From positions 911 to 64,910 of the forward strand of contig CAYIDJ010000002.1 in assembly GCA_964362215.1 (NCBI GenBank): a stretch of DNA of 64,000 bases, written 5' to 3'. The notes beneath the pieces were generated by a model that was not told the origin of the DNA, did not search any database, and was given only the letters and a program-made list of their open reading frames with translations. Position 1 is the first letter of the stretch, and each line of letters opens with the position of its first letter. The position numbers were made by a program, and so were the translations under genes. Origin of the DNA: an uncultured Candidatus Saccharibacteria bacterium. GTDB taxonomy: Bacteria; Patescibacteriota; Minisyncoccia; UBA6257; XYB1-36-10. Shown piece by piece: positions 4,448 to 63,350 of this stretch.

Positions 4448-4562
4448 CGGAAGTAAAAGATAAATCCCGGAGATGATATCAAAGGGATTTTTTATTTTGG
4501 AAGCGAAGCCTGCCTACGCTCTGTCGAGCTTCGGCGGGGCGAAGTGGTATAATGAAAAGCAA

Positions 4563-5426
4563 ATGAGGAAGATATTTTTTATCGCAGTGATGGTGGTGGC
4601 GGTGGGGGGAGTTTGGTGGTGGGGACAACAAAACGGTATTTCCTGGCGAGAACTGCCGGCAGAGTTTATGGCGCTGGTTGAGGATTCTTTTAAGCGGGAA
4701 GTGGAGTGGAAGACGACGACGATAGGAGAGAATCGGAAGTTTACGGCGGATGTGCCGGAGAATTGGGAGGCGACGATTAGCGGGAACGGGCTTACCCTTT
4801 CCAGTCCGGAGTTAGGAGAGACAATAAAGATTGAAACAGCTTCAACAACGGTGACGTTGCCGGTGGAGGAAGTCAGCCGGAGCGAGACGGTTCAGGTTGG
4901 GGGGCAGGAAGCGGTGGTGGTGCGGGGAGAAGGAGAAGAACCGGATACGGCTTATGTGCCTTTGCCGGACGGGACGCAAGTAGTGGTGACGGGCAAGGGG
5001 GAAGTATTTGAAGAAACATATAAGCGGATTGACCCGACACCGAACGAGCCGGACTGGAAACTGTTGGGAGTGGAGGCGCCGGAGACGGAGAGAATCGCGG
5101 CGGTACTGGACGAGTATTTGCCGAAGTTCGCGCCGGAACCGGCGGCGGCCGGAAAAAAATGGCAGAGCGAGGCGGTAGTCAGAATTATCGGACAACCGTT
5201 CGCTTATGTGGGATATGGGGATGGGGAAAGTAAACAGACGCTGATTATTAATTTGATGACGCCAGCAGGAGAGGTACCGGCGACTATCGGCTATTACAAA
5301 ACGGAAATAAAACAACAAGGAGGAAAGTGGGTGGTGATGGGTTCGCCGGACAAGGCAATTGCGATTTTGCCGGAGGCGGCGGCGGGATACGCGAAGGGGA
5401 GTGGCGGCACGTGGGAGAAGAAGTAG
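4563..5426 (+). CDS. Membrane-anchored hypothetical protein
   Basis: ORF 4473-5426. I prefer the internal ATG at 4563 (MRKIFFIAVMVVAVGGVWWW signal anchor) because an extended -10 (TGgTATAAT, 4545-4553) lies 9 nt upstream. Confidence 0.55.
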   Translation: MRKIFFIAVMVVAVGGVWWWGQQNGISWRELPAEFMALVEDSFKREVEWKTTTIGENRKFTADVPENWEATISGNGLTLSSPELGETIKIETASTTVTLPVEEVSRSETVQVGGQEAVVVRGEGEEPDTAYVPLPDGTQVVVTGKGEVFEETYKRIDPTPNEPDWKLLGVEAPETERIAAVLDEYLPKFAPEPAAAGKKWQSEAVVRIIGQPFAYVGYGDGESKQTLIINLMTPAGEVPATIGYYKTEIKQQGGKWVVMGSPDKAIAILPEAAAGYAKGSGGTWEKK

Positions 5427-5431
5427 GTTTT

Positions 5432-5536
5432 AGTAAAAGATAATTGTTTGTGAGACACGTGTATTTTCTGGCTGGAAAATCACTCTGATTCGCACCGCCG
5501 TGCTCCGCGCGGTCTCACAAACAATTATCTTTTACT
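5432..5536. repeat. Long hairpin element, family C copy 1 (25-bp perfect inverted repeat, ~55-nt conserved loop)
   Basis: agtaaaagataattgtttgtgagac (5432-5456) is the exact reverse complement of 5512-5536. The loop ends in ctctgattcgcaccgccgtgctccgcgcg, which is shared with 42694-42748. Confidence 0.85.
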
Positions 5537-5606: not shown

Positions 5607-5656
5607 AGCCTGCCTAAATTTTTACATGAGTAAAAAATTAGGCAGGCTTTAATTTT
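5607..5656 (+). terminator. Terminator-like hairpin of the AGCC(C/T)GCC-AT-rich family
   Basis: agcctgcctaaattttta-catgag-taaaaaattaggcaggct followed by ttaattttt. Confidence 0.6.
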
Positions 5657-5733
5657 TATACACAACCGAAGGCAGATTTTAGTTTCGGTTTGTGGTAAAA
5701 TTACGAAGGCGGTTAGAAATAATTTTTTATAAA

Positions 5734-6627
5734 ATGAATTTGTTTGATTTTAAGGAGCAGGGAATATTTGCGATGGCAGCGCTGGACCATCGGCGGAGTT
5801 TGATGAAGATGCTGGGGAGTGGCGGCAAGCGGAAAATGACGGAGTGGAAAGAAGAAGCGTTGGGTGGCCTTGCGGGGGTGGCGTCGGGAGTGTTGCTGGA
5901 TATGGAATACGGATTGCCGGCTTACCGGAAGTTAAAATTAAACAAGCCGTTTTTGTTGGCGATGGAGGCGAGCGGGTGGACGGGAACGGAAAATAATCGC
6001 CGGACGCGGCTGGCGCACTCGGCGAGAGAGATAAGAGAGGCGGGGGCGGGGGGAGCAAAGTTACTGGTTTATTATAATCCGGCGGCGAAGGGGGCGGGGG
6101 AAGTGAAAAAGACAGTGGCGCGGGCGGCGGAGCAGTGCCGAAGAGAGGAAATTCCGTTTTTGCTGGAAGTGATGACGTATAAAGTTGACGGGAGAGAAAA
6201 AAAAGCCGACTTGATTATTAAATCAATAAAAGAATTAGAGACGGGGAAAGTGGATGTATGGAAGCTGGAGTTTCCGGGAGACGCTAAAACGGCGGCAGGA
6301 AGGAAAAAAGCGGCAGAGGCGTGCCGGAAAATAACGGAGGTGCTTGGAGACAGACAATGGATACTGCTTTCGGCAGGAGATGATTTTAACGTGTTTAAGA
6401 GGCAGGTTGATGTGGCGACGGCGAATGGGGCGGCGGGGTTTTTGGCGGGTAGGGCTTTGTGGAAAGATTTTGGAAAATATAAGAATAGGAAAAAGTTTTT
6501 TACGGGAGTAACAAGGAGGCGTTTAGAGCAAATCAAAAAAATAGTGGTGGAAAATAAAGGGGGACACACTGACGTTTTTAGTCGTAGTTTCGGTCGGAGT
6601 TTGTGGTGGAAGGAGTTGTGGAGGTAG
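5734..6627 (+). CDS. Class I aldolase, LacD/DeoC family (tagatose/fructose-bisphosphate aldolase-like)
   Basis: 'FAMAALDHRRSL', 'AKLLVYYNP', 'PFLLEVMTY', 'VWKLEFPGD', 'ILLSAGDDF', 'GFLAGRALW' follow the LacD-type TIM-barrel pattern. ATG at 5734 preferred over the upstream GTG at 5692. Confidence 0.6.
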   Translation: MNLFDFKEQGIFAMAALDHRRSLMKMLGSGGKRKMTEWKEEALGGLAGVASGVLLDMEYGLPAYRKLKLNKPFLLAMEASGWTGTENNRRTRLAHSAREIREAGAGGAKLLVYYNPAAKGAGEVKKTVARAAEQCRREEIPFLLEVMTYKVDGREKKADLIIKSIKELETGKVDVWKLEFPGDAKTAAGRKKAAEACRKITEVLGDRQWILLSAGDDFNVFKRQVDVATANGAAGFLAGRALWKDFGKYKNRKKFFTGVTRRRLEQIKKIVVENKGGHTDVFSRSFGRSLWWKELWR

Positions 6628-6635
6628 GTGTGTTT

Positions 6636-6688
6636 GAGTGGAGTTAAGGTAGCTGTCTTTTTACAAAAAAAGACAGCTTTTGATTTTT
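6636..6688 (+). terminator. Conserved 3-prime module (GAG..GTTAAGGTAGC + hairpin + T tract), stand-alone copy
   Basis: gagtggagttaaggtagctgtc-tttttacaaaaaaa-gacagcttttgattttt right after the aldolase stop. Confidence 0.6.
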
Positions 6689-6789
6689 AGGAGCGGTGTT
6701 GTTGTTGACTGATTTTGATGGATGTGGTATACTAATTGAAGTTAAATAACTTTGATAATAAAAAAATAAATAAATAAGGGAGAAAAAAG

Positions 6790-16173: not shown

Positions 16174-16368
16174 CCATACTAAAAAAATTTCTGGATGCTG
16201 GTAATGCGGCTCATAATATACTCTCGCTACCGTCCATCTCCCCAGCGAGGAGATGGACTACGCCTCGCCCTCGCTCGTCCCGACTAAAGTCGGGACACCG
16301 TGCCTGCTCGGGCTCGGATGCGCGCTCGAGTATATTATGAGCCGCATAGTGTATATTTTTTAGTGTGG
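16174..16368. repeat. Nested palindromic element, family B copy 1
   Basis: Outer arms atgcggctcataatatactc (16204-16223) and gagtatattatgagccgcat (16328-16347). Inner hairpins are gtccatctcc/ggagatggac and gtcccgac/gtcgggac. Homologous to 63101-63258. Confidence 0.85.
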
Positions 16369-22573: not shown

Positions 22574-22590
22574 AAAATATGTTTTGTGAT

Positions 22591-22791
22591 ATTCTCCCCA
22601 TTACCATCGGCTCCGCTATTCGCTTAAAGCGAGTAATATTCACTCCCCTCTAATTTGGCTTATAAAACGGCTGGTTCCCGTTCCTCCCAAGGGGATTTTC
22701 CGACCAGCCGTTTTATAAAAGCCAAATTCTTCGTTGCGTTCATTTATCGCTAATTAAGCTCATAGAAGTCGCCAATGGTAATAGGGAGAAT
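22591..22791. repeat. Nested palindromic element, family A copy 1 (~200 bp)
   Basis: attctccccattaccatcggc (22591-22611) pairs with gccaatggtaatagggagaat (22771-22791). Inner arms ...ggcttataaaacggctggt / accagccgttttataaaagcc also pair. Homologous to 34824-35040. Confidence 0.85.
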
Positions 22792-22810
22792 AATTTACCC
22801 TTTTTATTTG

Positions 22811-22880
22811 GAGAGGGGGTTGGACTTAAGGTAGCCCGCCAAAATTTTTGCTTGCGCAAAAACTTAGGCGGGCTTTTGTT
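22811..22880 (+). terminator. Conserved 3-prime module: GAGAGGGGGTTGGACTTAAGGTAGCCCGCC hairpin + T tract
   Basis: agcccgccaaaatttttg-cttgcg-caaaaacttaggcgggct then tttgtttt. The same module recurs at 8 other sites. Confidence 0.7.
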
Positions 22881-22881
22881 T

Positions 22882-22917
22882 TATCCACTTATAATACATA
22901 TGTATTATAAGTGGATA
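22882..22917. repeat. 36-bp perfect palindrome P1 (TATCCACTTATAATACATATGTATTATAAGTGGATA)
   Basis: It is its own reverse complement. Related copies are at 37772-37807 and 46275-46310, with half copies at 26081-26095 and 42601-42610. Confidence 0.85.
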
Positions 22918-22950
22918 TAATTAAAGAAATAGCCCCGAGGTGGGTCGGGG

Positions 22951-34823: not shown

Positions 34824-35040
34824 TATATTCCCCCACCACCATTCGCTCCGCTACTCGCTCAAAGCGAATAATATTCGCTCCGTTCTAATTTGGCTTATAA
34901 AATGACTGGTTCCCATTCCTCCCTCGATAGAACCTCGGGATTTTCCGACCAGTCATATTTATAGAAGCCAAATTGTTCATTCCGCTCATTTATCGCTTAT
35001 TAAGCTCGTAGAAGTCGCGAATAATGATGGGGAGAATATA
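34824..35040. repeat. Nested palindromic element, family A copy 2
   Basis: tatattcccccaccaccattcgc pairs with gcgaataatgatggggagaatata. Collinear with 22591-22791 throughout. Confidence 0.85.
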
Positions 35041-37771: not shown

Positions 37772-37856
37772 TATCCACTTATAAAACATATGTTTTATAA
37801 GTGGATAGGTTGGGTGTGGTTACTATAATTTTTCCACGGTCGTTGGAAAATTATAG
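37772..37856. repeat. Two-hairpin module: P1 palindrome (37772-37807) + H2 hairpin (37823-37856)
   Basis: tatccacttataaaacatatgttttataagtggata, then ctataatttttccacggtcgttggaaaattatag. The same pair is found in reverse order at 46231-46310. Confidence 0.8.
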
Positions 37857-37895
37857 TTGATATAAAAATTGTAGAATTTTTAGTAAATAAAAAAA

Positions 37896-39081: not shown

Positions 39082-39217
39082 ATTGCTTTTTCCGCTATAT
39101 TTTGCCGGGTACGAACTGGCTCGCTCCAGCGGCGAGCCGTTCTCTGATCTCGCCGGCCGGAAGAACCAAGCCCGGCCGGCTCTGATAGCCCCTCTAAAAT
39201 ATAGCGGGAAAAGCAAT
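39082..39217. repeat. Nested palindromic element, family D
   Basis: attgctttttccgctatatttt (39082-39103) is the reverse complement of aaaatatagcgggaaaagcaat (39196-39217). The interior is GC-rich. Confidence 0.8.
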
Positions 39218-40923: not shown

Positions 40924-42552
40924 CTACTGGCCACTCTTTTGGATAGCGGCTTTGAGGAAGGCAAGGAAGAGGGGGTGAGGAGTGAGGGGGCGGGATTGGA
41001 GCTCGGGATGAAATTGAGTAGCAAGGAAGAAAGGGTGGTTAGGGAGTTCAAGAATTTCCACCAGATTTTGGTCGGGATTGACGCCGGAGAAGACGAGGCC
41101 GGCGGCGGCAAGTTGGTCGCGATAGTTATTATTGAGTTCGTAGCGGTGGCGGTGGCGTTCGGAGACAGTGTCGGCTTTGTAGGCGCGGTGGGCGAGAGTG
41201 TTTTTAGCGAGGGCGCAGGGGTAGCCGCCCAGACGCATAGAAGCGCCATAGTTTTTGTTTTTTACATTAGCAGCTTGTTCGGGAAGAATGTGAATAATAG
41301 GATGGGGAGTGTCGGGATTGATTTCGGTGGTGTGAGCGTCTTTGAGTCCGACAACGTTGCGGGCGAATTCCACGGCGGCCATTTGCATACCATAACAAAG
41401 TCCCAGGAAGGGGATGTTATTCCGGCGGATGTATTCAATAGCTTTTATTTTTCCTTCAATGCCGCGAGAACCGAAACCGCCGGGAATAATGATGCCGTCA
41501 TAGGATTTAAGCTCTTCCAGAGATACCGGATTTTTCTCAAAAGATTCAGAGTTGAGCCAGTCAATAACGGGGCGGCGTTTAAGGGCATAGCAGGCGTGTT
41601 TGATGGCCTCAATGACGGAAATGTAAGCGTCGGATAAAGTAAAGTCGCCGGAGGAAAAGTATTTGCCGACAATGCCGATGCGGACGGTGTCGGGAAAACG
41701 AGAGATTTTGAAACGCTTGTGCCACTCATGACCATTGCGGCGGCGGGGTTTGAGGCCGAATTTTTTGAGAATAACAGCGGAAAGATTGTCTTTTTCAAAG
41801 TTAATTGGTATCTGGTAGATGGATTTGACGTCGGGGGCGGAGATGACGTTTTCTTTGGGGACGTTGCAGAAGGTGGAGATTTTTTCTTTGCGGGGTTCGT
41901 CCAAAGAGGCGGAAGAGCGGGCGATGATGATGTCCGGCTGGATGCCGGCGGAATTCAGCAGGCGGGTGGCGTGCTGGGTGGGTTTTGTTTTCATCTCGCC
42001 AATCATTTTGGGAGTGGGAAGGTAGCTGACTAAAATAAAAGCTACGTTTTGCGGCTGGCGTGATTTAAGCAGACGGGCGGCTTCCAGAAAGAGCATATTT
42101 TCATACTCGCCGGCGGTGCCGCCGATTTCCACTAAAACAAAATTGGCTGACTCTTTGCGACTGACATGTTCCAAGCGTCTAATAACCTCTTCGGGGATGT
42201 GGGGGACAACTTGGACGCATTTGCCGCCATATTCCAGATTGCGTTCTTTCTGGATGACGGCGAGGTAGATGGAGCCGGTGGTCATGTAGTTGTCACTGGT
42301 TAAAGTGGTGTCCAGGAAGCGTTCGTAGTTGCCCATATCCTGGTCGCACTCGCGGCCGTCATTCAAAACAAATGTTTCACCGTGCTCAATGGGGTTCATA
42401 GTGCCGGCGTCAACGTTAATATAAGGGTCAATCTTGACGGCGGTGACTTTGAAGCCGAGGTCTTTAAGAATCCGCCCGATGGAGGCAGTGGTGACGCCTT
42501 TGCCAACTCCCGACATGACGCCGCCGACTACGAAGATGAACCGTGAAACCAT
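40924..42552 (-). CDS. pyrG: CTP synthase
   Basis: 'FVVGGVMSGVGKG', 'DPYINVDAGTM', glutaminase 'GLCYGMQ' and 'HRHRYE'. Confidence 0.95.
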   Translation of the reverse strand: MVSRFIFVVGGVMSGVGKGVTTASIGRILKDLGFKVTAVKIDPYINVDAGTMNPIEHGETFVLNDGRECDQDMGNYERFLDTTLTSDNYMTTGSIYLAVIQKERNLEYGGKCVQVVPHIPEEVIRRLEHVSRKESANFVLVEIGGTAGEYENMLFLEAARLLKSRQPQNVAFILVSYLPTPKMIGEMKTKPTQHATRLLNSAGIQPDIIIARSSASLDEPRKEKISTFCNVPKENVISAPDVKSIYQIPINFEKDNLSAVILKKFGLKPRRRNGHEWHKRFKISRFPDTVRIGIVGKYFSSGDFTLSDAYISVIEAIKHACYALKRRPVIDWLNSESFEKNPVSLEELKSYDGIIIPGGFGSRGIEGKIKAIEYIRRNNIPFLGLCYGMQMAAVEFARNVVGLKDAHTTEINPDTPHPIIHILPEQAANVKNKNYGASMRLGGYPCALAKNTLAHRAYKADTVSERHRHRYELNNNYRDQLAAAGLVFSGVNPDQNLVEILELPNHPFFLATQFHPELQSRPLTPHPLFLAFLKAAIQKSGQ

Positions 42553-42665: not shown

Positions 42666-42776
42666 CAGAAGCCCAGTTTCCTGTTTGTTGGACACGGATA
42701 TTTTTTTGCTAAAAAATTCCTCTGACTCGCACCGCCGTGCTCCGCGCGGTCCAACAAACAGGAAACTGGGCTTCTC
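42666..42776. repeat. Long hairpin element, family C copy 2 (27-bp perfect stem, conserved loop)
   Basis: agaagcccagtttcctgtttgttggac pairs with gtccaacaaacaggaaactgggcttct. The loop 3-prime half ctctgactcgcaccgccgtgctccgcgcg matches the copy at 5484-5511. Confidence 0.85.
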
Positions 42777-42827: not shown

Positions 42828-42877
42828 GAGGAAGAGTTGGATGATAATGTAGCCTGCTTGCCGGCAGGCCTTGATTT
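42828..42877 (+). repeat. Conserved 3-prime module in a divergent promoter region (GAGGAAGAGTTGGATGATAATGTAGCCTGC hairpin)
   Basis: gcctgc-ttgccg-gcaggc without a clean T tract. It lies between the pyrG (-) and pgk (+) starts, so a terminator role is doubtful here. Confidence 0.6.
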
Positions 42878-42914
42878 GTAGCAGTACAAACAAAGCGTGT
42901 ATAATGGTTTAAAA

Positions 42915-44021
42915 ATGGCAATACAATTTATTTCTAAAGCCAGCCGGAGGGAACTTACCGGGACGGCCATAGTACGGCTGGATTTTAATGACGCGGATGG
43001 GTGGCGGATAGAGCAGTCGGCGCGGACGATAAAGTTTCTGATTAAAAAAGCGGATAAGCTGGTTATTTTGGGGCACCGAGGCCGGCCGAAGCCGTCAATG
43101 CATATAACGCGGAACAATAAAGAGTTCTCGCTTAAGGGAGAGGAAGCGCGTCTGGCGAAAATTGTCGGGCGGTCGGTGGAATTTATCGCTCACAGCCGGA
43201 TATCGGAGGCGGCCAACGAGATACGGAACGCGGCGGTGGGCGCGGTTTTTCTGTTGGAGAATGTGCGGTTTTTAGACGGCGAGGAGGAGAATAACACGGA
43301 GTTGGCGCGGCACCTGGCGTCGCTGGGAGATTATTATGTAAATGAAGCGTTTGCCAACTGCCACCGGGCGCACGCTTCCATGGTGGGGATTACCAAGTTT
43401 GCGCCGAGTTATGGCGGGCTGCGACTGGAAGAGGAAATAGTTAATTTGTCGCGAGTGATGAAGAAGCCGAGACGTCCGCTGGTGATGATATTCGGCGGAG
43501 CGAAGGCGGACTCAAAACTGCCGGTGATTGCGCATTTTCGCAGGCGGGCGGATGCTTTTTTGGTGGGAGGAGCGCTGGGAAATACTTTGCTTTATTTAGA
43601 AGGTGTGAACATAGGGGAGTCAGTGGCGGAGAGAAAAATTGACGGCATGATATTGAAAGTGGCGCGGATGAAAAATATAAAGGGACTGGTTGATGCGCGG
43701 AGACGAGGCGGAAAGATCTTAGATATCGGACCGAAGACAGAGAAGATATTTATGGGGGAGATAAAGCGGGCGAAGACAATTGTTTGGAACGGGCCGTTGG
43801 GAATGATTGAGAAGCGCGGGTTTGAGAGCGGAACGAAGGTGGTCGCTCGGGCGGTGGCGAGAACGAAGGCGTTTTCGGTGGTGGGAGGTGGGGAGACGGT
43901 CAACTTTATCCGCAAGTTGAAACTAGAGAAAAAGATTAGTTTTCTTTCCACCGGCGGGGGAGCGATGCTTGATTTTTTGGCGGGGAAGAAATTGCCGGGG
44001 ATAGAGGCGTTGAGTAAATAA
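42915..44021 (+). CDS. pgk: Phosphoglycerate kinase
   Basis: 'IVRLDFN', 'ILGHRGRPK', 'ENVRF', 'GGAKADSKL', 'WNGPLGM', 'STGGGA'. TATAAT (42900-42905) lies 9 nt before ATG 42915, so the upstream GTG start is unlikely. Confidence 0.9.
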   Translation: MAIQFISKASRRELTGTAIVRLDFNDADGWRIEQSARTIKFLIKKADKLVILGHRGRPKPSMHITRNNKEFSLKGEEARLAKIVGRSVEFIAHSRISEAANEIRNAAVGAVFLLENVRFLDGEEENNTELARHLASLGDYYVNEAFANCHRAHASMVGITKFAPSYGGLRLEEEIVNLSRVMKKPRRPLVMIFGGAKADSKLPVIAHFRRRADAFLVGGALGNTLLYLEGVNIGESVAERKIDGMILKVARMKNIKGLVDARRRGGKILDIGPKTEKIFMGEIKRAKTIVWNGPLGMIEKRGFESGTKVVARAVARTKAFSVVGGGETVNFIRKLKLEKKISFLSTGGGAMLDFLAGKKLPGIEALSK

Positions 44022-58351: not shown

Positions 58352-61300
58352 ATGCCGGAAAGATTTCCCGACCGTCCGGAAAGAAATGAAGAAAACCTAA
58401 AGAAGGCGGGGTTAGAGTTGGAAAAAGAGGAAAAATCAGAAAAAGAGAAGATTTCGGAAGAAGTAATTCCGGAAGAAAAAACGCCCACGGAGATAGAAAA
58501 AGAAGTTATATTAAACAGTTTGAGTTTAGAAACTGAGCTTGAAAAAGACGCGACAAAAGAATTTAAAAAAGAAAGAAATGAAGAGTGGGAAGAGAAAAAG
58601 GATAATCTGACAATAACCGAGCTTAAAGAAACGGTAGAATTTAATGAATCACAAATAAAGAATCTATTGCATTACGGAGATTCTTTCTTTCACTTATCAG
58701 AAGAAGAGGGGGAGAAGATAGAGAAACTAAACATAAACTTGCCGGAAGAGACGGAGGAGGTTTATTTTTCCCTGAATAAAATAAAAGATTTTATGGAGAA
58801 GGCGCAGAATTATCGCCAAAAAGCTTTTAATCTGATCGGAATAACGGAAGAAGCAGAAGGTGTTTACATAAATAAGCAAGCGCAAGAAGGAGGATGGTCC
58901 TCTTTTCAGGAATTAAAAGAAGAGCATGAGCGACTCGAGGAAGAGATGATGAATTTAGACGAGAAACTAACTTATAACAAATCCTTGAAAAAGTTTATTT
59001 TTGATAAAGAATACCGACAAGAGAGGAAACAGGATAAGCAAAAATTTAAGGAAGTAAAAAAAGAGTACGAGCACAATGAAAAACTATTCCATCCATTAAG
59101 CTATTATAATTTTAGTATTAGAGAACAGATAAGAGGATTTAACCAACTTTTGGATATGTATGGACAAAATACTAAATATTTTACTGAAAAAATTGGAGAT
59201 AAATTAAGAGAAAAATTCATTCAGTATATAAAAAATAAACAAAAGGAAATGGCGCCGGCGGATGAGTTTAAAGATTATGATTTAAGTTTATGGGGACAAA
59301 ATTTTTCTAAGGTAAAAAACTGTTTAACAATTGAAAAAAGCTTAAAGGAGGTGATAACCGCGATGGAGGATAGGGAAAAATGGTATGTTTTTGATATTAA
59401 TAAATTAAAAGGAAGTATGGTTAAGAGTTCAATAAGTCAACACATTATTGAATTTTTTAAAGATGTTTCGTTTAATGACTGGGAGAAGTTTTGCGCGGAT
59501 AATGAAAACACCCTGACCGAAGAAATACGAAAGACAGTCAGCGGAGTTATAACGGATAGAATTCTGGAAACCAGAGAAAAATTTGACGATGGCCGTTTGC
59601 AGAGAGAGGCGGATAGCCTTAGTAACAGTTCTTTTGTTTTTGCTGATAAAGAAACAATGCCGATAGCCGTTATTAATTTACTTAATATTAGTGATTATTA
59701 TGATCGGGTTATGGTGGAAAATAGAGCAGCCGCTGTTTTTGAAAAGTTTAAAGAGGAGAATTTTGACGTTCCGGGAATAAAGAAAATTGTAAAAGCAAAG
59801 GAGATGGTTAATTCTGTTGGTGAATTTTTAAGAGGGGAAAGAGAAATGTATACTCGGTATTTATTAGCAGATGGTTTACTGGAGGCCGGTTCTTTTTACT
59901 TAAAATCAAACGATCCACGAATGCAGGTTTTGGGGGCTTTGTCTTTGCGTGAAATAGACAGATATGAAGGTGCCGACTCAAATAGATCCGATGAGGTTTA
60001 TAAAATGTTTAATAATGTTTATAAAGAAAAAAATCTTAATGAACGGGTAATAGGGGCCATTGGAAAAGTAGCCTTAGATGAGGTATGGTACACAAAAAAT
60101 TTTTATGCCAAGCAAATAGCTTTTAATTTAATTAAAGATTATGACCGTTTGTCTAATGTTAACCAGTGGAAAATAAAGGAGGCGGCGCCCAGGATGGTAG
60201 GATTGTTTGTTTCTAAAAATGAAGTTAGTAATATAAACGAAGAAGAAGCGGAAGTTTTAGCTAAAGTTCTTGAAATAGAACCAAAGGACCTTATAAAAAC
60301 AATTAATTTAATTAATTTGGCAATTAATACTCTTAACGTCAACCATGATTACAGCCCGTTAGAATTTAAACTTTATCATCGTTTGGCTAAAATTGAAGAT
60401 GCGGAAGATTTTTTGGTGAAATTAAATAATCTGGGTTGTCATTTTAGAATAGACAGCACGGATAAATTATTGAAAATACACGAAAACAAAGAGGAATTCA
60501 TAAGTAGAGTTAAACAATTAAAAAATTCCCTTAGTGATTCCGCCTCTTTTAATTTCATAGAGAGAGATGAAGATGTTTATAAAATAACCGATAGCAATCT
60601 TTTAGAAATTTTAGGCAGTTTTAAATCAGATAAGGGTTTGCAGAATTTTGTTCTAAACAATCTTGATAAAATCTTGGCTATTACTTCAGAAAGAAGAGAG
60701 AATTACATTAAAATTCTTGATAAAATAGAACATTCTCCCTCGCAAGAAATTCAAAAACTTAAAAACCAGATTCTTTCTGAAATTGTTTCCACTGATAATC
60801 CGGAGATATCTTATGAAAAGATAGAGCAAGTATTTTTAAAGAACAATCTGCCGGCGGTAGGGAAAATTTACCGCATTTTCGAGACGCTTTATCCGGCATA
60901 TAAAATAAAAAGTTTGATAAATTATCAATCCAGTCCGGTTTTACAGAAAGCCGGACCGACCAGACGGCGCCATATTTTTTACCAAGATTTATTAAAAACG
61001 CATATCCGTTCGGCTAACCGTTCACTTAGAGAATACGCGGAAGCTTTTTTAAGCGGCGAGGGAGTATTGGCTAAAGCGGAGCGGGACGGATTTGATAATT
61101 TAGCAGGAGAAGAAAAAGAGCGGTTAAAATATTTCTTCGGACGATTGAATACATTATTTTTAAGTTCTTCGCTGGGAGAAAACATCAAGGCGGTTGAAAG
61201 AGGTTTATCTTTAGAAGACGAATATAAAAGATTAAAGATAAGTTTGGTGGTTAAAGAAGGACAAACCGTTAAGGAGAGGGTGGAAGAAATGTTTTTGCGA

Positions 61301-62863
61301 CCGGCCGGGCTTGATTCCCTGGGAGCTCTGCTCGATGAAATGGCGGAAGCTAAAAGAGAAGCCCACGAACGAAATATGGAATTGGCTAAAAATCTTAAGG
61401 CCGGTGATCTTAATTTATCTCCGGGAGATATACTGAAGGGGGTTAATGAGAAATTTATTAACTTAATTTTACAAAATGGTTCCGTTTCCAAAGAGTTTTT
61501 AGGCGCGGATACGCCGGGTTCGGATAGTACTCCTTTTGACACGGACGTCAGTGTAGTTTTAAAGCAGGACGTGGAAAACGGAAAAAATAACGCCTTTAAA
61601 AATTCAATGGCGGCTTCTTTTGGTAATCTTGTCTTAGCCATACGCGACCGGGGGCAATTCCAAGTTACAAGACGGCATGGCCAAGAACTTGGCCGCCAGC
61701 AAACAGATAACGGTAAAATGGAACTTTTTAGCACTGGCGGGGGAGGACAACATTACGGCGTCCGTACCGGGTTTCCCTCCACGGAGATAGATTTTATTAT
61801 CGCCAGAGATTCTTTTCTTGAAAAAGGTTATGGCTACAACGAGGGGAAGGTGGAAGAATTGTATTATGAAATAGCCCAAAACGGATTTTACATACCGGTA
61901 ACAGATGAGGAAGGAGAAATTGTTTTCACTCCGGAAATGTACAACGAGTACCGAAAAACATTTGACGGTTTGGACCGTTTTGACGGTAATCCATTGGAAA
62001 TTAAAAGATTGTCAACTGGCGATTCTTATTTACAACAGGTTAAAGAAATAACTAAGGAAATGAAAAAAGACAGAAAAGAGGTGGTAAATTTATCCGACGG
62101 GATTATCAAAGAAGTCCGCCGAGCTTTAGGTGTTTTGGGAATAACTTTTAAGGATAAATATGATCCGGGAATATTGGGGGCGGAACTTTTAGATATCGGC
62201 TCTACCGGGCGGGGAACCAATATGCCAGGCGATTATGATTTTGATTTTACTTTAAAATTAGATGATAAGGATTTTGAATCCGCGGAGGTGATAGCTAAAA
62301 ATATAAAATCGGAAATGGAGTTTCAGGAGGATAAATCTCATCCGGAGGCAAGCGGCTATTATCAGTTGCGTTTGATGGGAATTACTAAAATCGGAAAAAT
62401 TAAATTAAAAGAATCACTTGACCTTGATATTGGATTTGTTAAAAAATCGGATTTGGCGGTTTTTGGTTCTCATAATGCCATTGAAGAAAAATTAGAGTGG
62501 ATAAAAGATAACTTGGGAGAAGACGCCTATTGGGAAGTTTTGGGTAATATTGTCTTGGCTAAAAAAATCCTTAAAGAGGGCGGGGCTTATAAAAGGGTAG
62601 AGCAAGGGGGGTTTGGCGGTATCGGGACGGAAAATTGGATATTGGCTAATTCCGGTAATTTGGAAGAAGCGTTTAGAACTTTCCGCGGGGCCGCTTATGA
62701 AAATGGAAAAATTATTTCCTTTGATGAATTTATGAAAAAATATAAAATTTTTAACGCCGGTATGAATATTAAACATCTTTTCCACGATAACTATATTAAA
62801 AATATGACGGAGAGCGGATATGCTGCTTTTGTTAAAACGGCTGATGAGTTTTTATCTAAATAA
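58352..62863 (+). CDS. Giant 1503-aa protein: E/K-rich N-terminus, long helical middle, C-terminal class-I (archaeal CCA/PAP-like) nucleotidyltransferase domain
   Basis: A single uninterrupted ORF that is strongly AT-rich. aa 1283-1298 GSTGRGTNMPGDYDFD fits the Pol-beta motif. 'LDLDIGF' is a candidate third-acid strand. 'KILKEGGAYKRVEQGGFGGIGTENWIL' resembles the GFSGY..ELL neck motif. No signal peptide or TM. Confidence 0.7.
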   Translation: MPERFPDRPERNEENLKKAGLELEKEEKSEKEKISEEVIPEEKTPTEIEKEVILNSLSLETELEKDATKEFKKERNEEWEEKKDNLTITELKETVEFNESQIKNLLHYGDSFFHLSEEEGEKIEKLNINLPEETEEVYFSLNKIKDFMEKAQNYRQKAFNLIGITEEAEGVYINKQAQEGGWSSFQELKEEHERLEEEMMNLDEKLTYNKSLKKFIFDKEYRQERKQDKQKFKEVKKEYEHNEKLFHPLSYYNFSIREQIRGFNQLLDMYGQNTKYFTEKIGDKLREKFIQYIKNKQKEMAPADEFKDYDLSLWGQNFSKVKNCLTIEKSLKEVITAMEDREKWYVFDINKLKGSMVKSSISQHIIEFFKDVSFNDWEKFCADNENTLTEEIRKTVSGVITDRILETREKFDDGRLQREADSLSNSSFVFADKETMPIAVINLLNISDYYDRVMVENRAAAVFEKFKEENFDVPGIKKIVKAKEMVNSVGEFLRGEREMYTRYLLADGLLEAGSFYLKSNDPRMQVLGALSLREIDRYEGADSNRSDEVYKMFNNVYKEKNLNERVIGAIGKVALDEVWYTKNFYAKQIAFNLIKDYDRLSNVNQWKIKEAAPRMVGLFVSKNEVSNINEEEAEVLAKVLEIEPKDLIKTINLINLAINTLNVNHDYSPLEFKLYHRLAKIEDAEDFLVKLNNLGCHFRIDSTDKLLKIHENKEEFISRVKQLKNSLSDSASFNFIERDEDVYKITDSNLLEILGSFKSDKGLQNFVLNNLDKILAITSERRENYIKILDKIEHSPSQEIQKLKNQILSEIVSTDNPEISYEKIEQVFLKNNLPAVGKIYRIFETLYPAYKIKSLINYQSSPVLQKAGPTRRRHIFYQDLLKTHIRSANRSLREYAEAFLSGEGVLAKAERDGFDNLAGEEKERLKYFFGRLNTLFLSSSLGENIKAVERGLSLEDEYKRLKISLVVKEGQTVKERVEEMFLRPAGLDSLGALLDEMAEAKREAHERNMELAKNLKAGDLNLSPGDILKGVNEKFINLILQNGSVSKEFLGADTPGSDSTPFDTDVSVVLKQDVENGKNNAFKNSMAASFGNLVLAIRDRGQFQVTRRHGQELGRQQTDNGKMELFSTGGGGQHYGVRTGFPSTEIDFIIARDSFLEKGYGYNEGKVEELYYEIAQNGFYIPVTDEEGEIVFTPEMYNEYRKTFDGLDRFDGNPLEIKRLSTGDSYLQQVKEITKEMKKDRKEVVNLSDGIIKEVRRALGVLGITFKDKYDPGILGAELLDIGSTGRGTNMPGDYDFDFTLKLDDKDFESAEVIAKNIKSEMEFQEDKSHPEASGYYQLRLMGITKIGKIKLKESLDLDIGFVKKSDLAVFGSHNAIEEKLEWIKDNLGEDAYWEVLGNIVLAKKILKEGGAYKRVEQGGFGGIGTENWILANSGNLEEAFRTFRGAAYENGKIISFDEFMKKYKIFNAGMNIKHLFHDNYIKNMTESGYAAFVKTADEFLSK

Positions 62864-63100: not shown

Positions 63101-63258
63101 AGCATCTCGTCAACATACTCTCCCTACCGTCCATTCCCCCAGCGAGGGAATGGACTACGCCTCGGTCTCGCTCCCGAGCACTCAAATTAAGAAATACGAG
63201 TGTTCGGACCATGCCCACTCGACCTCGGATGCGCGCTCAAGTATATTGGCGAGATGCT
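63101..63258. repeat. Nested palindromic element, family B copy 2
   Basis: agcatctcgtcaacatactc pairs with aagtatattggcgagatgct. It shares ...atactctccctaccgtccattcccccagcgagggaatggactacgcctcg... and ...ctcggatgcgcgctcaagtatatt with 16174-16368. Confidence 0.85.
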
Positions 63259-63281: not shown

Positions 63282-63350
63282 GAGGTAAGAGTTAGACATG
63301 GTGTAACCCGCCTATGTTTTACTAAGTAAAACATAGGCGGGTCTTTATTA
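63282..63350 (+). terminator. Conserved 3-prime module (GAGGTAAGAGTTAGACATGGTGTAACCCGCC hairpin + T tract)
   Basis: acccgcctatgtttta-ctaag-taaaacataggcgggt (63306-63342), then ctttatta. Confidence 0.65.

Follow-up and report, generated by a model that had tools for sequence, protein, structure and literature searches.

The 64,000-nucleotide stretch of contig CAYIDJ010000002.1 that was analysed here (referred to as the window; positions 911 to 64,910 of the forward strand) carries, in the spacers between its genes, two copies of a hairpin element designated Family C. Copy 1 starts 5 nucleotides (nt) past the stop codon of the open reading frame (ORF) at 4473-5426, and copy 2 is situated between the divergent genes pyrG (40924-42552, minus strand) and pgk (plus strand, ATG at about 42915). 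The two are the longest inverted repeats within 200 nt in the window, and the perfect stems of 25 and 27 bp given for them in a preliminary description of this DNA were confirmed (100% complementarity). Their parts, with P1 for the basal stem and P2 for a smaller hairpin within the loop, are the following:

5432-5536, plus strand: Family C copy 1, whole hairpin, 105 nt, scored at 117 bits by the covariance model
5432-5456, plus strand: copy 1, left arm of P1, 25 nt, AGTAAAAGATAATTGTTTGTGAGAC, 100% complementary to 5512-5536
5457-5511, plus strand: copy 1, conserved apical module, 55 nt, based on alignment A4, pair counts, RNAalifold and loop-only folds
5459-5469 with 5474-5483, plus strand: copy 1, P2 hairpin with one bulged T, next to an AC joiner
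5484-5491, plus strand: copy 1, joiner after P2, TCTGATTC
5492-5495 with 5500-5503, plus strand: copy 1, invariant G+C hairpin GCAC/GTGC, or alternatively CGTGC/GCGCG
5504-5511, plus strand: copy 1, loop tail, TCCGCGCG
5512-5536, plus strand: copy 1, right arm of P1, 25 nt, complement of the left arm
42667-42775, plus strand: Family C copy 2, whole hairpin, 109 nt, 128 bits, with a stem of the recurrent AGAAGCC type
42667-42693, plus strand: copy 2, left arm of P1, 27 nt, 100% complementary to 42749-42775
42694-42748, plus strand: copy 2, conserved apical module, 55 nt, with P2 at 42696-42706/42711-42720
42721-42728, plus strand: copy 2, joiner after P2, TCTGACTC
42729-42740, plus strand: copy 2, G+C hairpin
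42741-42748, plus strand: copy 2, loop tail
42749-42775, plus strand: copy 2, right arm of P1, 27 nt
42852-42869, plus strand: terminator-like hairpin outside the Family C element, 77 nt downstream of copy 2

The two loops align without gaps, and their last 22 nt together with the first GTC of the right arm are identical; the arms have only the loop-proximal TGTTTGT(GA/TG)GAC in common. The loop 22-mer TCGCACCGCCGTGCTCCGCGCG occurs twice in the window against 0.01 occurrences expected, and the left arm of copy 1 has no second match anywhere in it. Folding z-scores of copies 1 and 2 amount to -9.5 and -10.8 with RNA parameters and to -8.6 and -11.1 with DNA parameters, no shuffled sequence folding as well. 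A chance origin of these hairpins is excluded. Neither are they assembly artefacts, because the same elements are present in independent assemblies and samples: copy 1 is found also in an independent Hainich contig (L062), and contigs from Hainich groundwater (metagenome of the 0.1-µm fraction) encode the exact PyrG protein of the window.

A scan of metagenomes with the exact loop 22-mer identified 12 further loci (numbered L040 to L051) on Hainich contigs and in two JGI (Joint Genome Institute) metagenomes. Tabulation of their stems, as the preliminary description had suggested, gave a hairpin with a 55-nt loop and a stem of 24-28 bp at all 12. The covariance model (R1), built from 13 copies and run over all loci retrieved, added one full copy with a 56-nt loop and without the exact 22-mer (L060, 9724-9835), and two more that are truncated, one at either end of contig L061. 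With a fuzzy search by arm sequence a decayed remnant was picked up in L058 (1745-1776), and in L045 part of a copy proved to be duplicated: a segment (2600-2690) comprising the final 12 loop nucleotides, the right arm and some 60 nt of the flank to its right is repeated 225 nt downstream (2826-2910), either by a rearrangement or by an insertion with a long duplication. The combination of a conserved loop with divergent but paired stems, first remarked on the two window copies, was borne out and extends to a family of about 15 copies. They measure 105-111 nt and belong to a small clade of Paceibacteria (Patescibacteria, candidate phyla radiation or CPR) from groundwater metagenomes; relatives by Pgk, ArgS and aldolase are labelled Paceibacterota, Patescibacteria or Parcubacteria by their sources. 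In the host, 3 copies fall within about 96 kb, or roughly one every 30 kb. No copy of the family lies inside a gene.

Relatives at about 58% Pgk identity have no copy within 10 kb on either side of pgk according to the covariance model. Queried with a loop 20-mer, species-representative genomes returned 37 single chance matches, all in G+C-rich genomes (e.g. Streptomyces) and none with arms, which makes this comparison uninformative. Viral contigs, phage records and plasmid records gave no Family C match. Against Rfam, RNase P and two tRNAs are all that passes the gathering thresholds in the window, while at E ≤ 10 the Family C region attracts only generic microRNA-precursor models (16 bits, against thresholds of at least 75); none of its RNA families, hammerhead, twister, pistol, hatchet, Y RNA, 6S and SRP included, matches Family C. 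Our survey of the Patescibacteria literature found no relevant description of such repeats.

Alignment A4 comprises 13 copies without gaps, in 28 + 55 + 28 columns. Its paired cells reach 95.2%, against 73.6% in shuffles and 41-49% in slid registers, and both P1 and P2 are independently recovered by RNAalifold. In P1, 93% of the cells are paired and 24 of the 27 pairs show changes on both sides. The mean identity of the arms across the family is 45%. The GAC/GTC at the junction is invariant, T is nearly invariant at columns 17 and 19-21, and the stem ends in AG...CT in 9 of 13 copies. "Completely different", as the stems had been called, therefore needs qualification: most of the sequence is divergent, but the terminal AG...CT, the T-rich block and the GAC are kept. 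P2 pairs loop positions 3-13 with 18-27 around one bulged T, with 99% of cells paired; its five central A-T pairs are constant, and both sides change in four of its nine pairs (TG/CA, GA/TC, AG/CT and GG/CC; C-G and T-A). The isolated loop folds as P2 under DNA parameters as well. The structure is backed by covariation.

The loop is 55 nt long in every copy with the exact 22-mer (56 nt in L060), and 45 of its 55 positions are invariant, eight of the ten variable ones forming four covarying pairs. Its 3' half reads TCTGAYTC-GCACCGCCGTGC-TCCGCGCG throughout and provided the 22 exact bases of the search query. Because this half is invariant, the GCAC/GTGC and CGTGC/GCGCG helices are indistinguishable; with either small G+C helix the tip is predicted to be a three-way junction. 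By manual comparison the hammerhead, purine-riboswitch and tRNA-like junction layouts were rejected, their core motifs (CUGAUGA/GAAA and others) being absent. A minus-strand mini-ORF in the loop was dismissed likewise, its length and sequence not being conserved between copies 1 and 2, and neither window copy was called as an intrinsic terminator: their right flanks are GTACAC... and CTGGCT..., and a T-rich tail is present only in L041.

The stems are inherited, both when the element is copied and when it is passed on between species. The stem type of copy 2, AGAAGCCnAGnTTCCTGTTTGCTGGAC (AGAAGCC), recurs in L042, L044, L046, L048, L049, at both ends of L061 and in the L058 remnant, that is at six or more non-orthologous loci, only L049/L052 being orthologous to the window (pyrG/pgk, Pgk 84% identical). 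This stem is accompanied by flanking sequence, about 14 nt on the left and about 30 nt on the right, and an A.C mismatch at A4 column 18/94 is common to L042, L044, L046 and L049. Since the same stem and the same mismatch are found at non-orthologous loci, new AGAAGCC copies inherit their stem. At the corresponding window positions (42684/42758) copy 2 has a G-C pair, though its orthologue L049 has A.C; parallel mutation, conversion or a tolerated mismatch could account for this pattern.

Between orthologues, copy 2 and its counterpart in L052 have arms that are 78% and 85% identical and loops that are 96% identical, against 28% and 50-52% for the adjacent non-coding flanks. For L060 and L051 (spacer between ligA and argS, ArgS 80% identical) the values are 78% for both arms and 86% for the loop, against 43-62% for the non-coding flank. 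Counted from the sequences of both pairs together, there are seven compensated pair changes in P1 and four in P2, against four unpaired outcomes; had the two arms changed independently, about 0.3 such pairs would be expected in each stem. Three of the compensated pairs of L060/L051 are adjacent (TTC/GAA versus GCA/TGC). The element is under purifying selection relative to the neighbouring spacer DNA, and the strong selection for pairing that was among the explanations proposed at the outset is supported, as it fits all that was observed on the stems, here and below.

The mechanism proposed alongside it was that the stem is rebuilt at each insertion, by fold-back or copy-out or by inverted copying of flanking DNA. 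Six copies (1, 2, L041, L043, L045 and L060) indeed have perfect stems of 24-27 bp and unrelated sequence, and the patch of three adjacent compensated pairs that separates two orthologues may be a hint of arm-to-arm copying. The other eight (L040, L042, L044, L046, L047, L048, L049 and L051), however, are ordinary diverged homologues with 1-4 mismatches in their stems, the outcome that the preliminary description had itself named as a refutation; among about 350 stem pairs, the mismatches are some ten A.C, five to seven G.T and five or six of transversion type. Rebuilding is also at odds with the presence of one stem, inherited mismatch included, at several non-orthologous loci and with its vertical passage between species. 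In the sister species (L058), Family C is missing from the copy 1 locus. Its place is taken by a hairpin that belongs to a different family and lies within additional inverted repeats, so that the site is not a cleanly empty one; the downstream terminator-like hairpin and the aldolase gene are conserved. A match of one arm to the ancestral flank had been proposed as a check on templating; aligned to the orthologous spacer, the arms of copy 1 score 11 against 9.1 ± 1.2 in shuffles, which is nothing beyond chance. Target-site duplications were not detectable: when the best direct repeat is taken from the flanks of each copy, the mean length is 1.9 nt, against 1.2 ± 1.4 for random sequence, without a common motif, and no duplication of either polarity is located beyond the stem. 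Considered as guides or targets, the arms match nothing else in about 230 kb of clade sequence. The rebuilding mechanism is largely refuted, and we regard it as exceedingly improbable.

Alternatively, only the tip might move. The apical module (55 nt plus GAC/GTC, perhaps with about 12 bp of inner stem) would then be inserted into existing hairpins or exchanged by loop-limited gene conversion, giving stems and loops separate histories. The 55-nt loop is identical within five pairs of copies, and in four of these pairs the stems are unrelated (33-48% arm identity); the AGAAGCC stem, for its part, occurs with at least five loop variants. Family C is nested in shells of another hairpin family at L044 and L048, perfect palindromes of 18-19 bp, with loops of 0-4 nt, abound in the window as potential targets, and the stem bases of L041 and L040 are G+C-rich, that of L041 being followed by a T-rich tail as in a terminator. 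The identical loops were nevertheless dropped as proof of stem replacement: with about five free loop sites or site-pairs, 2.2 of the 78 pairs are expected to be identical, from which the five observed do not differ significantly. The stems, moreover, share their length (24-28 bp), the AG...CT ends and the T-rich block, which speaks for homologous parts of the element and not for random targets. A version of the stem without the loop was not found in the 230 kb of clade sequence, nor an empty palindrome at the copy 1 locus of the sister species. A mobile tip thus seems unlikely to us.

Among the known interspersed repeats, the REPINs are doublets of REP sequences that form hairpins and are mobilised by RAYT transposases. 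Like these, the Family C elements are extragenic, dispersed, multi-copy hairpins of about 100 nt that persist vertically, and REPINs too are thought to act as folded single strands. No RAYT or Y1/HUH transposase was seen in the gene tables of the retrieved loci (host sequence covered, about 100 kb). Compensatory changes on both sides of the hairpin are common in REPINs (PMC3116915), as they are in Family C. In REPINs, however, the arms (REP 25-mers) are conserved and the spacer or loop is free, the reverse of the situation in Family C, which also differs from REP sequences in lacking a GTAG-type head (its ends are AG...CT), in being asymmetric and in being locked in orientation.

The Correia, ERIC and RUP elements, which are MITEs (miniature inverted-repeat transposable elements), resemble Family C in their size (100-150 bp), in the folding of their terminal inverted repeats of about 26 bp into a long hairpin, and in being intergenic and often co-transcribed; De Gregorio et al., in work of 2002-2003, reportedly found Correia transcripts to be cut by RNase III. 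We considered whether Family C might be an ordinary MITE of an unseen insertion sequence that is decaying neutrally, its conserved loop being an artefact of the search with the loop motif. Size, lack of an ORF and extragenic dispersal are in line with this, and so are the one recently amplified subfamily that breaks assemblies (L061) and the demand for 22 exact loop bases in the search. But of the 33 loop positions outside the query 23 are invariant, and eight of the ten variable ones fall in covarying pairs; orthologous copies are far better kept than their flanking spacer, with compensated changes. MITEs have conserved terminal repeats and target duplications (TA for Correia), whereas Family C conserves its centre. 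Its terminal repeats are conserved only within the AGAAGCC subfamily, the seven other stems being mutually unalignable outside the T-rich block and the GAC, and it shows no target duplication. All 12 metagenome matches have a 55-nt interior and none is longer, so that a long version with these ends, as expected for a parent insertion sequence, is missing among them. An origin of this kind appears very unlikely.

The attC sites of integrons conserve structure while their sequence is free; they are recognised as folded single strands of one polarity, and their orientation to replication matters. Family C likewise favours structure over sequence and is strand-specific. An attC site, however, keeps its outer R''/R' boxes (RYYYAAC/GTTRRRY) and extrahelical bases and varies at the tip, whereas Family C keeps the tip. 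No attC core is found at the stem base, which is AG...CT in 9 of 13 copies, and six stems are perfect and have no bulges. Furthermore, attC sites stand in cassette arrays beside an integrase (intI), and Family C is scattered in single copies among housekeeping genes, such as between pyrG and pgk, between ligA and argS, and between a hypothetical gene and the aldolase gene. In the substrates of yeast Rnt1p (AGNN hairpins) and of Drosha and Dicer, the signal at the apex or junction is conserved, and the stem is free in sequence as long as its length and pairing are right. They provide no more than a working analogy for why a stem such as that of Family C would be selected for length (24-28 bp) and perfection, and they are eukaryotic RNA systems with tetraloop signals. 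Very small repeats in hairpin contexts, nested in one another, were reportedly described by Elhai et al. in 2008 for heterocyst-forming cyanobacteria; those dispersed repeats are units of 21-27 nt with a conserved sequence, unlike Family C. To our knowledge, a conserved junction of 55 nt carried by locus-specific stems has not been described. By this comparison Family C would be classed as an interspersed extragenic hairpin repeat that belongs to no named family.

The orientation of Family C is fixed. At each of the 13-14 independent loci, the motif lies on whichever strand of the flanks is G-rich (skew +0.16 to +0.50); with random orientation, co-orientation in 14 of 14 would have a probability of 2 x 0.5^14 = 1e-4. 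The gene contexts are tandem (copy 1, L046, L047, L051/L060), divergent (copy 2/L049, L042, L043) and convergent (L044, L048). In the window itself the GC skew ranges from +0.17 to +0.45 along the 64 kb and is unchanged over minus-strand genes such as pyrG, with A slightly in excess of T, and about 80% of the genes lie on the G-rich strand. So uniform a skew over 64 kb represents an unusually strong strand asymmetry.

Our preferred reading, which we hold tentatively and at rather less than even odds, is that Family C is a lineage-specific, dispersed and structure-constrained family of REP-like extragenic hairpins that act as folded single strands. The unit of inheritance would be the whole hairpin, occasionally copied, with two parts under different constraints. 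The apical module, with its A/T-rich hairpin and bulged T, short G+C hairpin and pyrimidine-rich joiners, would be read by sequence. In the basal stem of 24-28 bp only pairing, length and a few positions (AG...CT, T-rich block, GAC) would matter, and each locus would therefore drift to a stem of its own through compensated changes. A trans-acting protein may recognise the junction on the folded single strand, and the perfect stem, of about 2.5 helical turns, could serve as a rigid spacer or ruler to the stem base. Arm-to-arm templated correction probably helps to keep the stems perfect.

As to the form in which the hairpin would act, a role in DNA is slightly ahead of one in RNA: the plus-strand hairpin could be exposed on the lagging-strand template, as with REP sequences. 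Orientation follows the G-rich strand in tandem, divergent and convergent contexts alike; there is no wobble signature, G.U pairs being in excess on neither strand; and one orthologue pair (L060/L051) carries the three-base compensated patch. In addition, copy 2 stands between two promoters that are directed away from it and have their -10 boxes close to the genes, a TATAAAAT-like one 14-20 nt before the ATG of pyrG and TGTATAAT 12 nt before that of pgk; both boxes are conserved in L052.

Several points weigh against the reading of Family C as a REP-like folded single strand, and against DNA as its form in particular. Set against the gene-strand bias of about 80%, co-orientation in 14 of 14 has a probability of 0.8^14 = 0.04, which is marginal over what a transcribed element would show. 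A three-way junction whose joiners are conserved is a typical feature of functional RNAs. Transcription would in any case cover the five copies located 5-22 nt past a stop codon, and copy 2 lies between a perfect extended -10 (TGTGTATAAT), 30 nt upstream of it, and a terminator-like hairpin downstream. The invariance of the 3' half of the loop is partly ascertainment, because the copies were found by searching for those bases. The orthologous comparison rests on two pairs, the third locus (copy 1) lacking the element in the sister species. The ruler is inferred throughout, and no partner protein emerged: ten unusual ORFs of the window, compared with Pfam, have no transposase, recombinase or HUH domain.

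Some of these points would be natural if Family C were a structured RNA, a transcribed hairpin acting in cis or as a small RNA, with its helix as an RNase III-type site or stability element and a protein bound to the junction. This is a possibility of some weight, though we consider it doubtful. P1 and P2 covary, the element is better conserved than the surrounding spacer, and every locus has at least one neighbouring gene whose sense strand carries the motif. Many copies lie directly past stop codons in what must be 3' untranslated regions; besides the bracketing of copy 2 by the extended -10 and the terminator-like hairpin, similar terminator modules stand 50-85 nt downstream of copy 1, L040 and L042. 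However, G.U is not above A.C in the roughly 350 stem pairs, and no Rfam family matches. Neither the extended -10 nor the terminator-like hairpin of copy 2 is conserved in its orthologue (L049/L052), and no gene upstream reads towards that hairpin (42852-42869). In the divergent contexts of copy 2 and L043, the -10 boxes of the genes lie 9-17 nt from the start codons, and therefore the known promoters do not cover the element.

The element could also be taken for a portable promoter that reads rightward and drives the downstream gene, given that every copy contains nnGACA-17 nt-(A/G)AAAAT (A4 columns 24-29 and 47-52), which is similar to the sigma-70-type promoters of this lineage. The GACA, the 17-nt spacing and the AAAAT are invariant in 13 of 13 copies, a promoter scan detects the nnGACA/AAAAT site in copy 2, and nine or ten copies are located 70-200 nt upstream of a co-oriented gene. 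In shuffled sequence, however, the same scan yields a similar number of sites, and the P2 covariation spans the spacer and the region after the -10, for which a duplex promoter would have no need. The downstream genes, moreover, carry proximal -10 boxes of their own, and L044 and L048 face a convergent gene. A promoter function is highly improbable.

A broader proposal extends the REP-like reading to the other hairpin families of the window that have a like layout (long locus-specific stem, three-way junction, pyrimidine-rich joiners, same strand). Together with Family C these might constitute an undescribed class of host-maintained chromosomal cis-elements in Paceibacteria: a protein would read the junction on single-stranded DNA of the replication fork or on RNA and act some 26 bp away at the stem base, and the stem, irrelevant in sequence, would be kept perfect by arm-to-arm templated correction. 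We offer this as a rather unlikely extension.

Interspersed hairpin repeats (REP, REPIN, MITE, attC) usually are defined by conserved arms or ends. Family C reverses this, its tip being conserved and its arms free but paired, and is better preserved between species than the spacer around it. Its host is an uncultivated CPR bacterium with a streamlined genome of about 1 Mb; a genome of this sort has little room for junk, and the element is therefore probably used. Acting in DNA, it would represent a strand-specific chromosomal signal of a new kind; acting in RNA, a new family of structured RNAs that is absent from Rfam. Either role would make the family a clean natural data set on the upkeep of long helices, by selection alone or by templated correction.

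Other hairpin repeats share the spacers with Family C. A second family is represented in the window at 16204-16347 and 63101-63258, and also in L042 (2407-2564) and L058 (about 200-350). Its members lie on the same strand as Family C and have homologous G+C-rich interiors with two internal hairpins (a three-way junction) on different stems of 19-20 bp; its shells are those that enclose the Family C copies in L044 and L048, and the left flank of copy 2, CATACTCTCGCTTAGCGG, resembles its left junction. At 39082-39217 stands a hairpin of 136 nt with a stem of 22 bp. Inside it the parts succeed one another as in Family C: first a hairpin, then the joiner TTCTCTGATCTC, a G+C-rich hairpin and finally a tail rich in pyrimidines. 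As it has the joiner motif CTCTGAY-TC in common with Family C, the two may share an origin or be recognised by one factor. A third family (AATTTGGCTTATAAAA...GGTTCCCGTTCCTCCC...) is found at 22590-22792 (enclosing 22652-22728) and 34887-34974, in L044 (3806-3963) and in L058 (about 1540-1620), nested inside a larger inverted repeat. The intergenic spacers of this clade are composed of nested hairpin repeats.

A terminator-like module, composed of TAAGGT or TAATGT, AG[stem]...[stem]CT and TTTGATTT, occurs at 5607-5648, 42850-42872 and about 6650-6690, and in L042, L040 and L058 (about 1835-1870). Its stem shows a fully compensated difference between the orthologous spacers of two species (AGCTGTC.../AGTCCCGA...). 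There are also perfect or near-perfect palindromes of 17-27 bp with spacers of 0-2 nt (44580-44619, 63306-63342, 46230-46265, 37772-37807, 37822-37857 and 22873-22926), which include two sequence families, TATCCACTTATAA.ACAT and ACTAYAATTTTTCCACG.

Elsewhere in the window, a 1503-aa ORF without a Pfam match extends over 58352-62863, in a stretch of low G+C content (36-37%). The RNase P RNA (class A, 214 bits) at 47568-48063 is 496 nt long because of an A+T-rich insertion of about 100 nt in the P15-P17 region (about 47837-47934), which belongs to none of the hairpin families. TATAAT-like -10 boxes are located 9-17 nt before start codons at 42895-42917 and about 5715-5736, and upstream of argS in L051, L060 and L061; no Shine-Dalgarno sequence is visible at these genes, and the arrangement suggests leaderless mRNAs, or mRNAs with very short leaders, in the host lineage.

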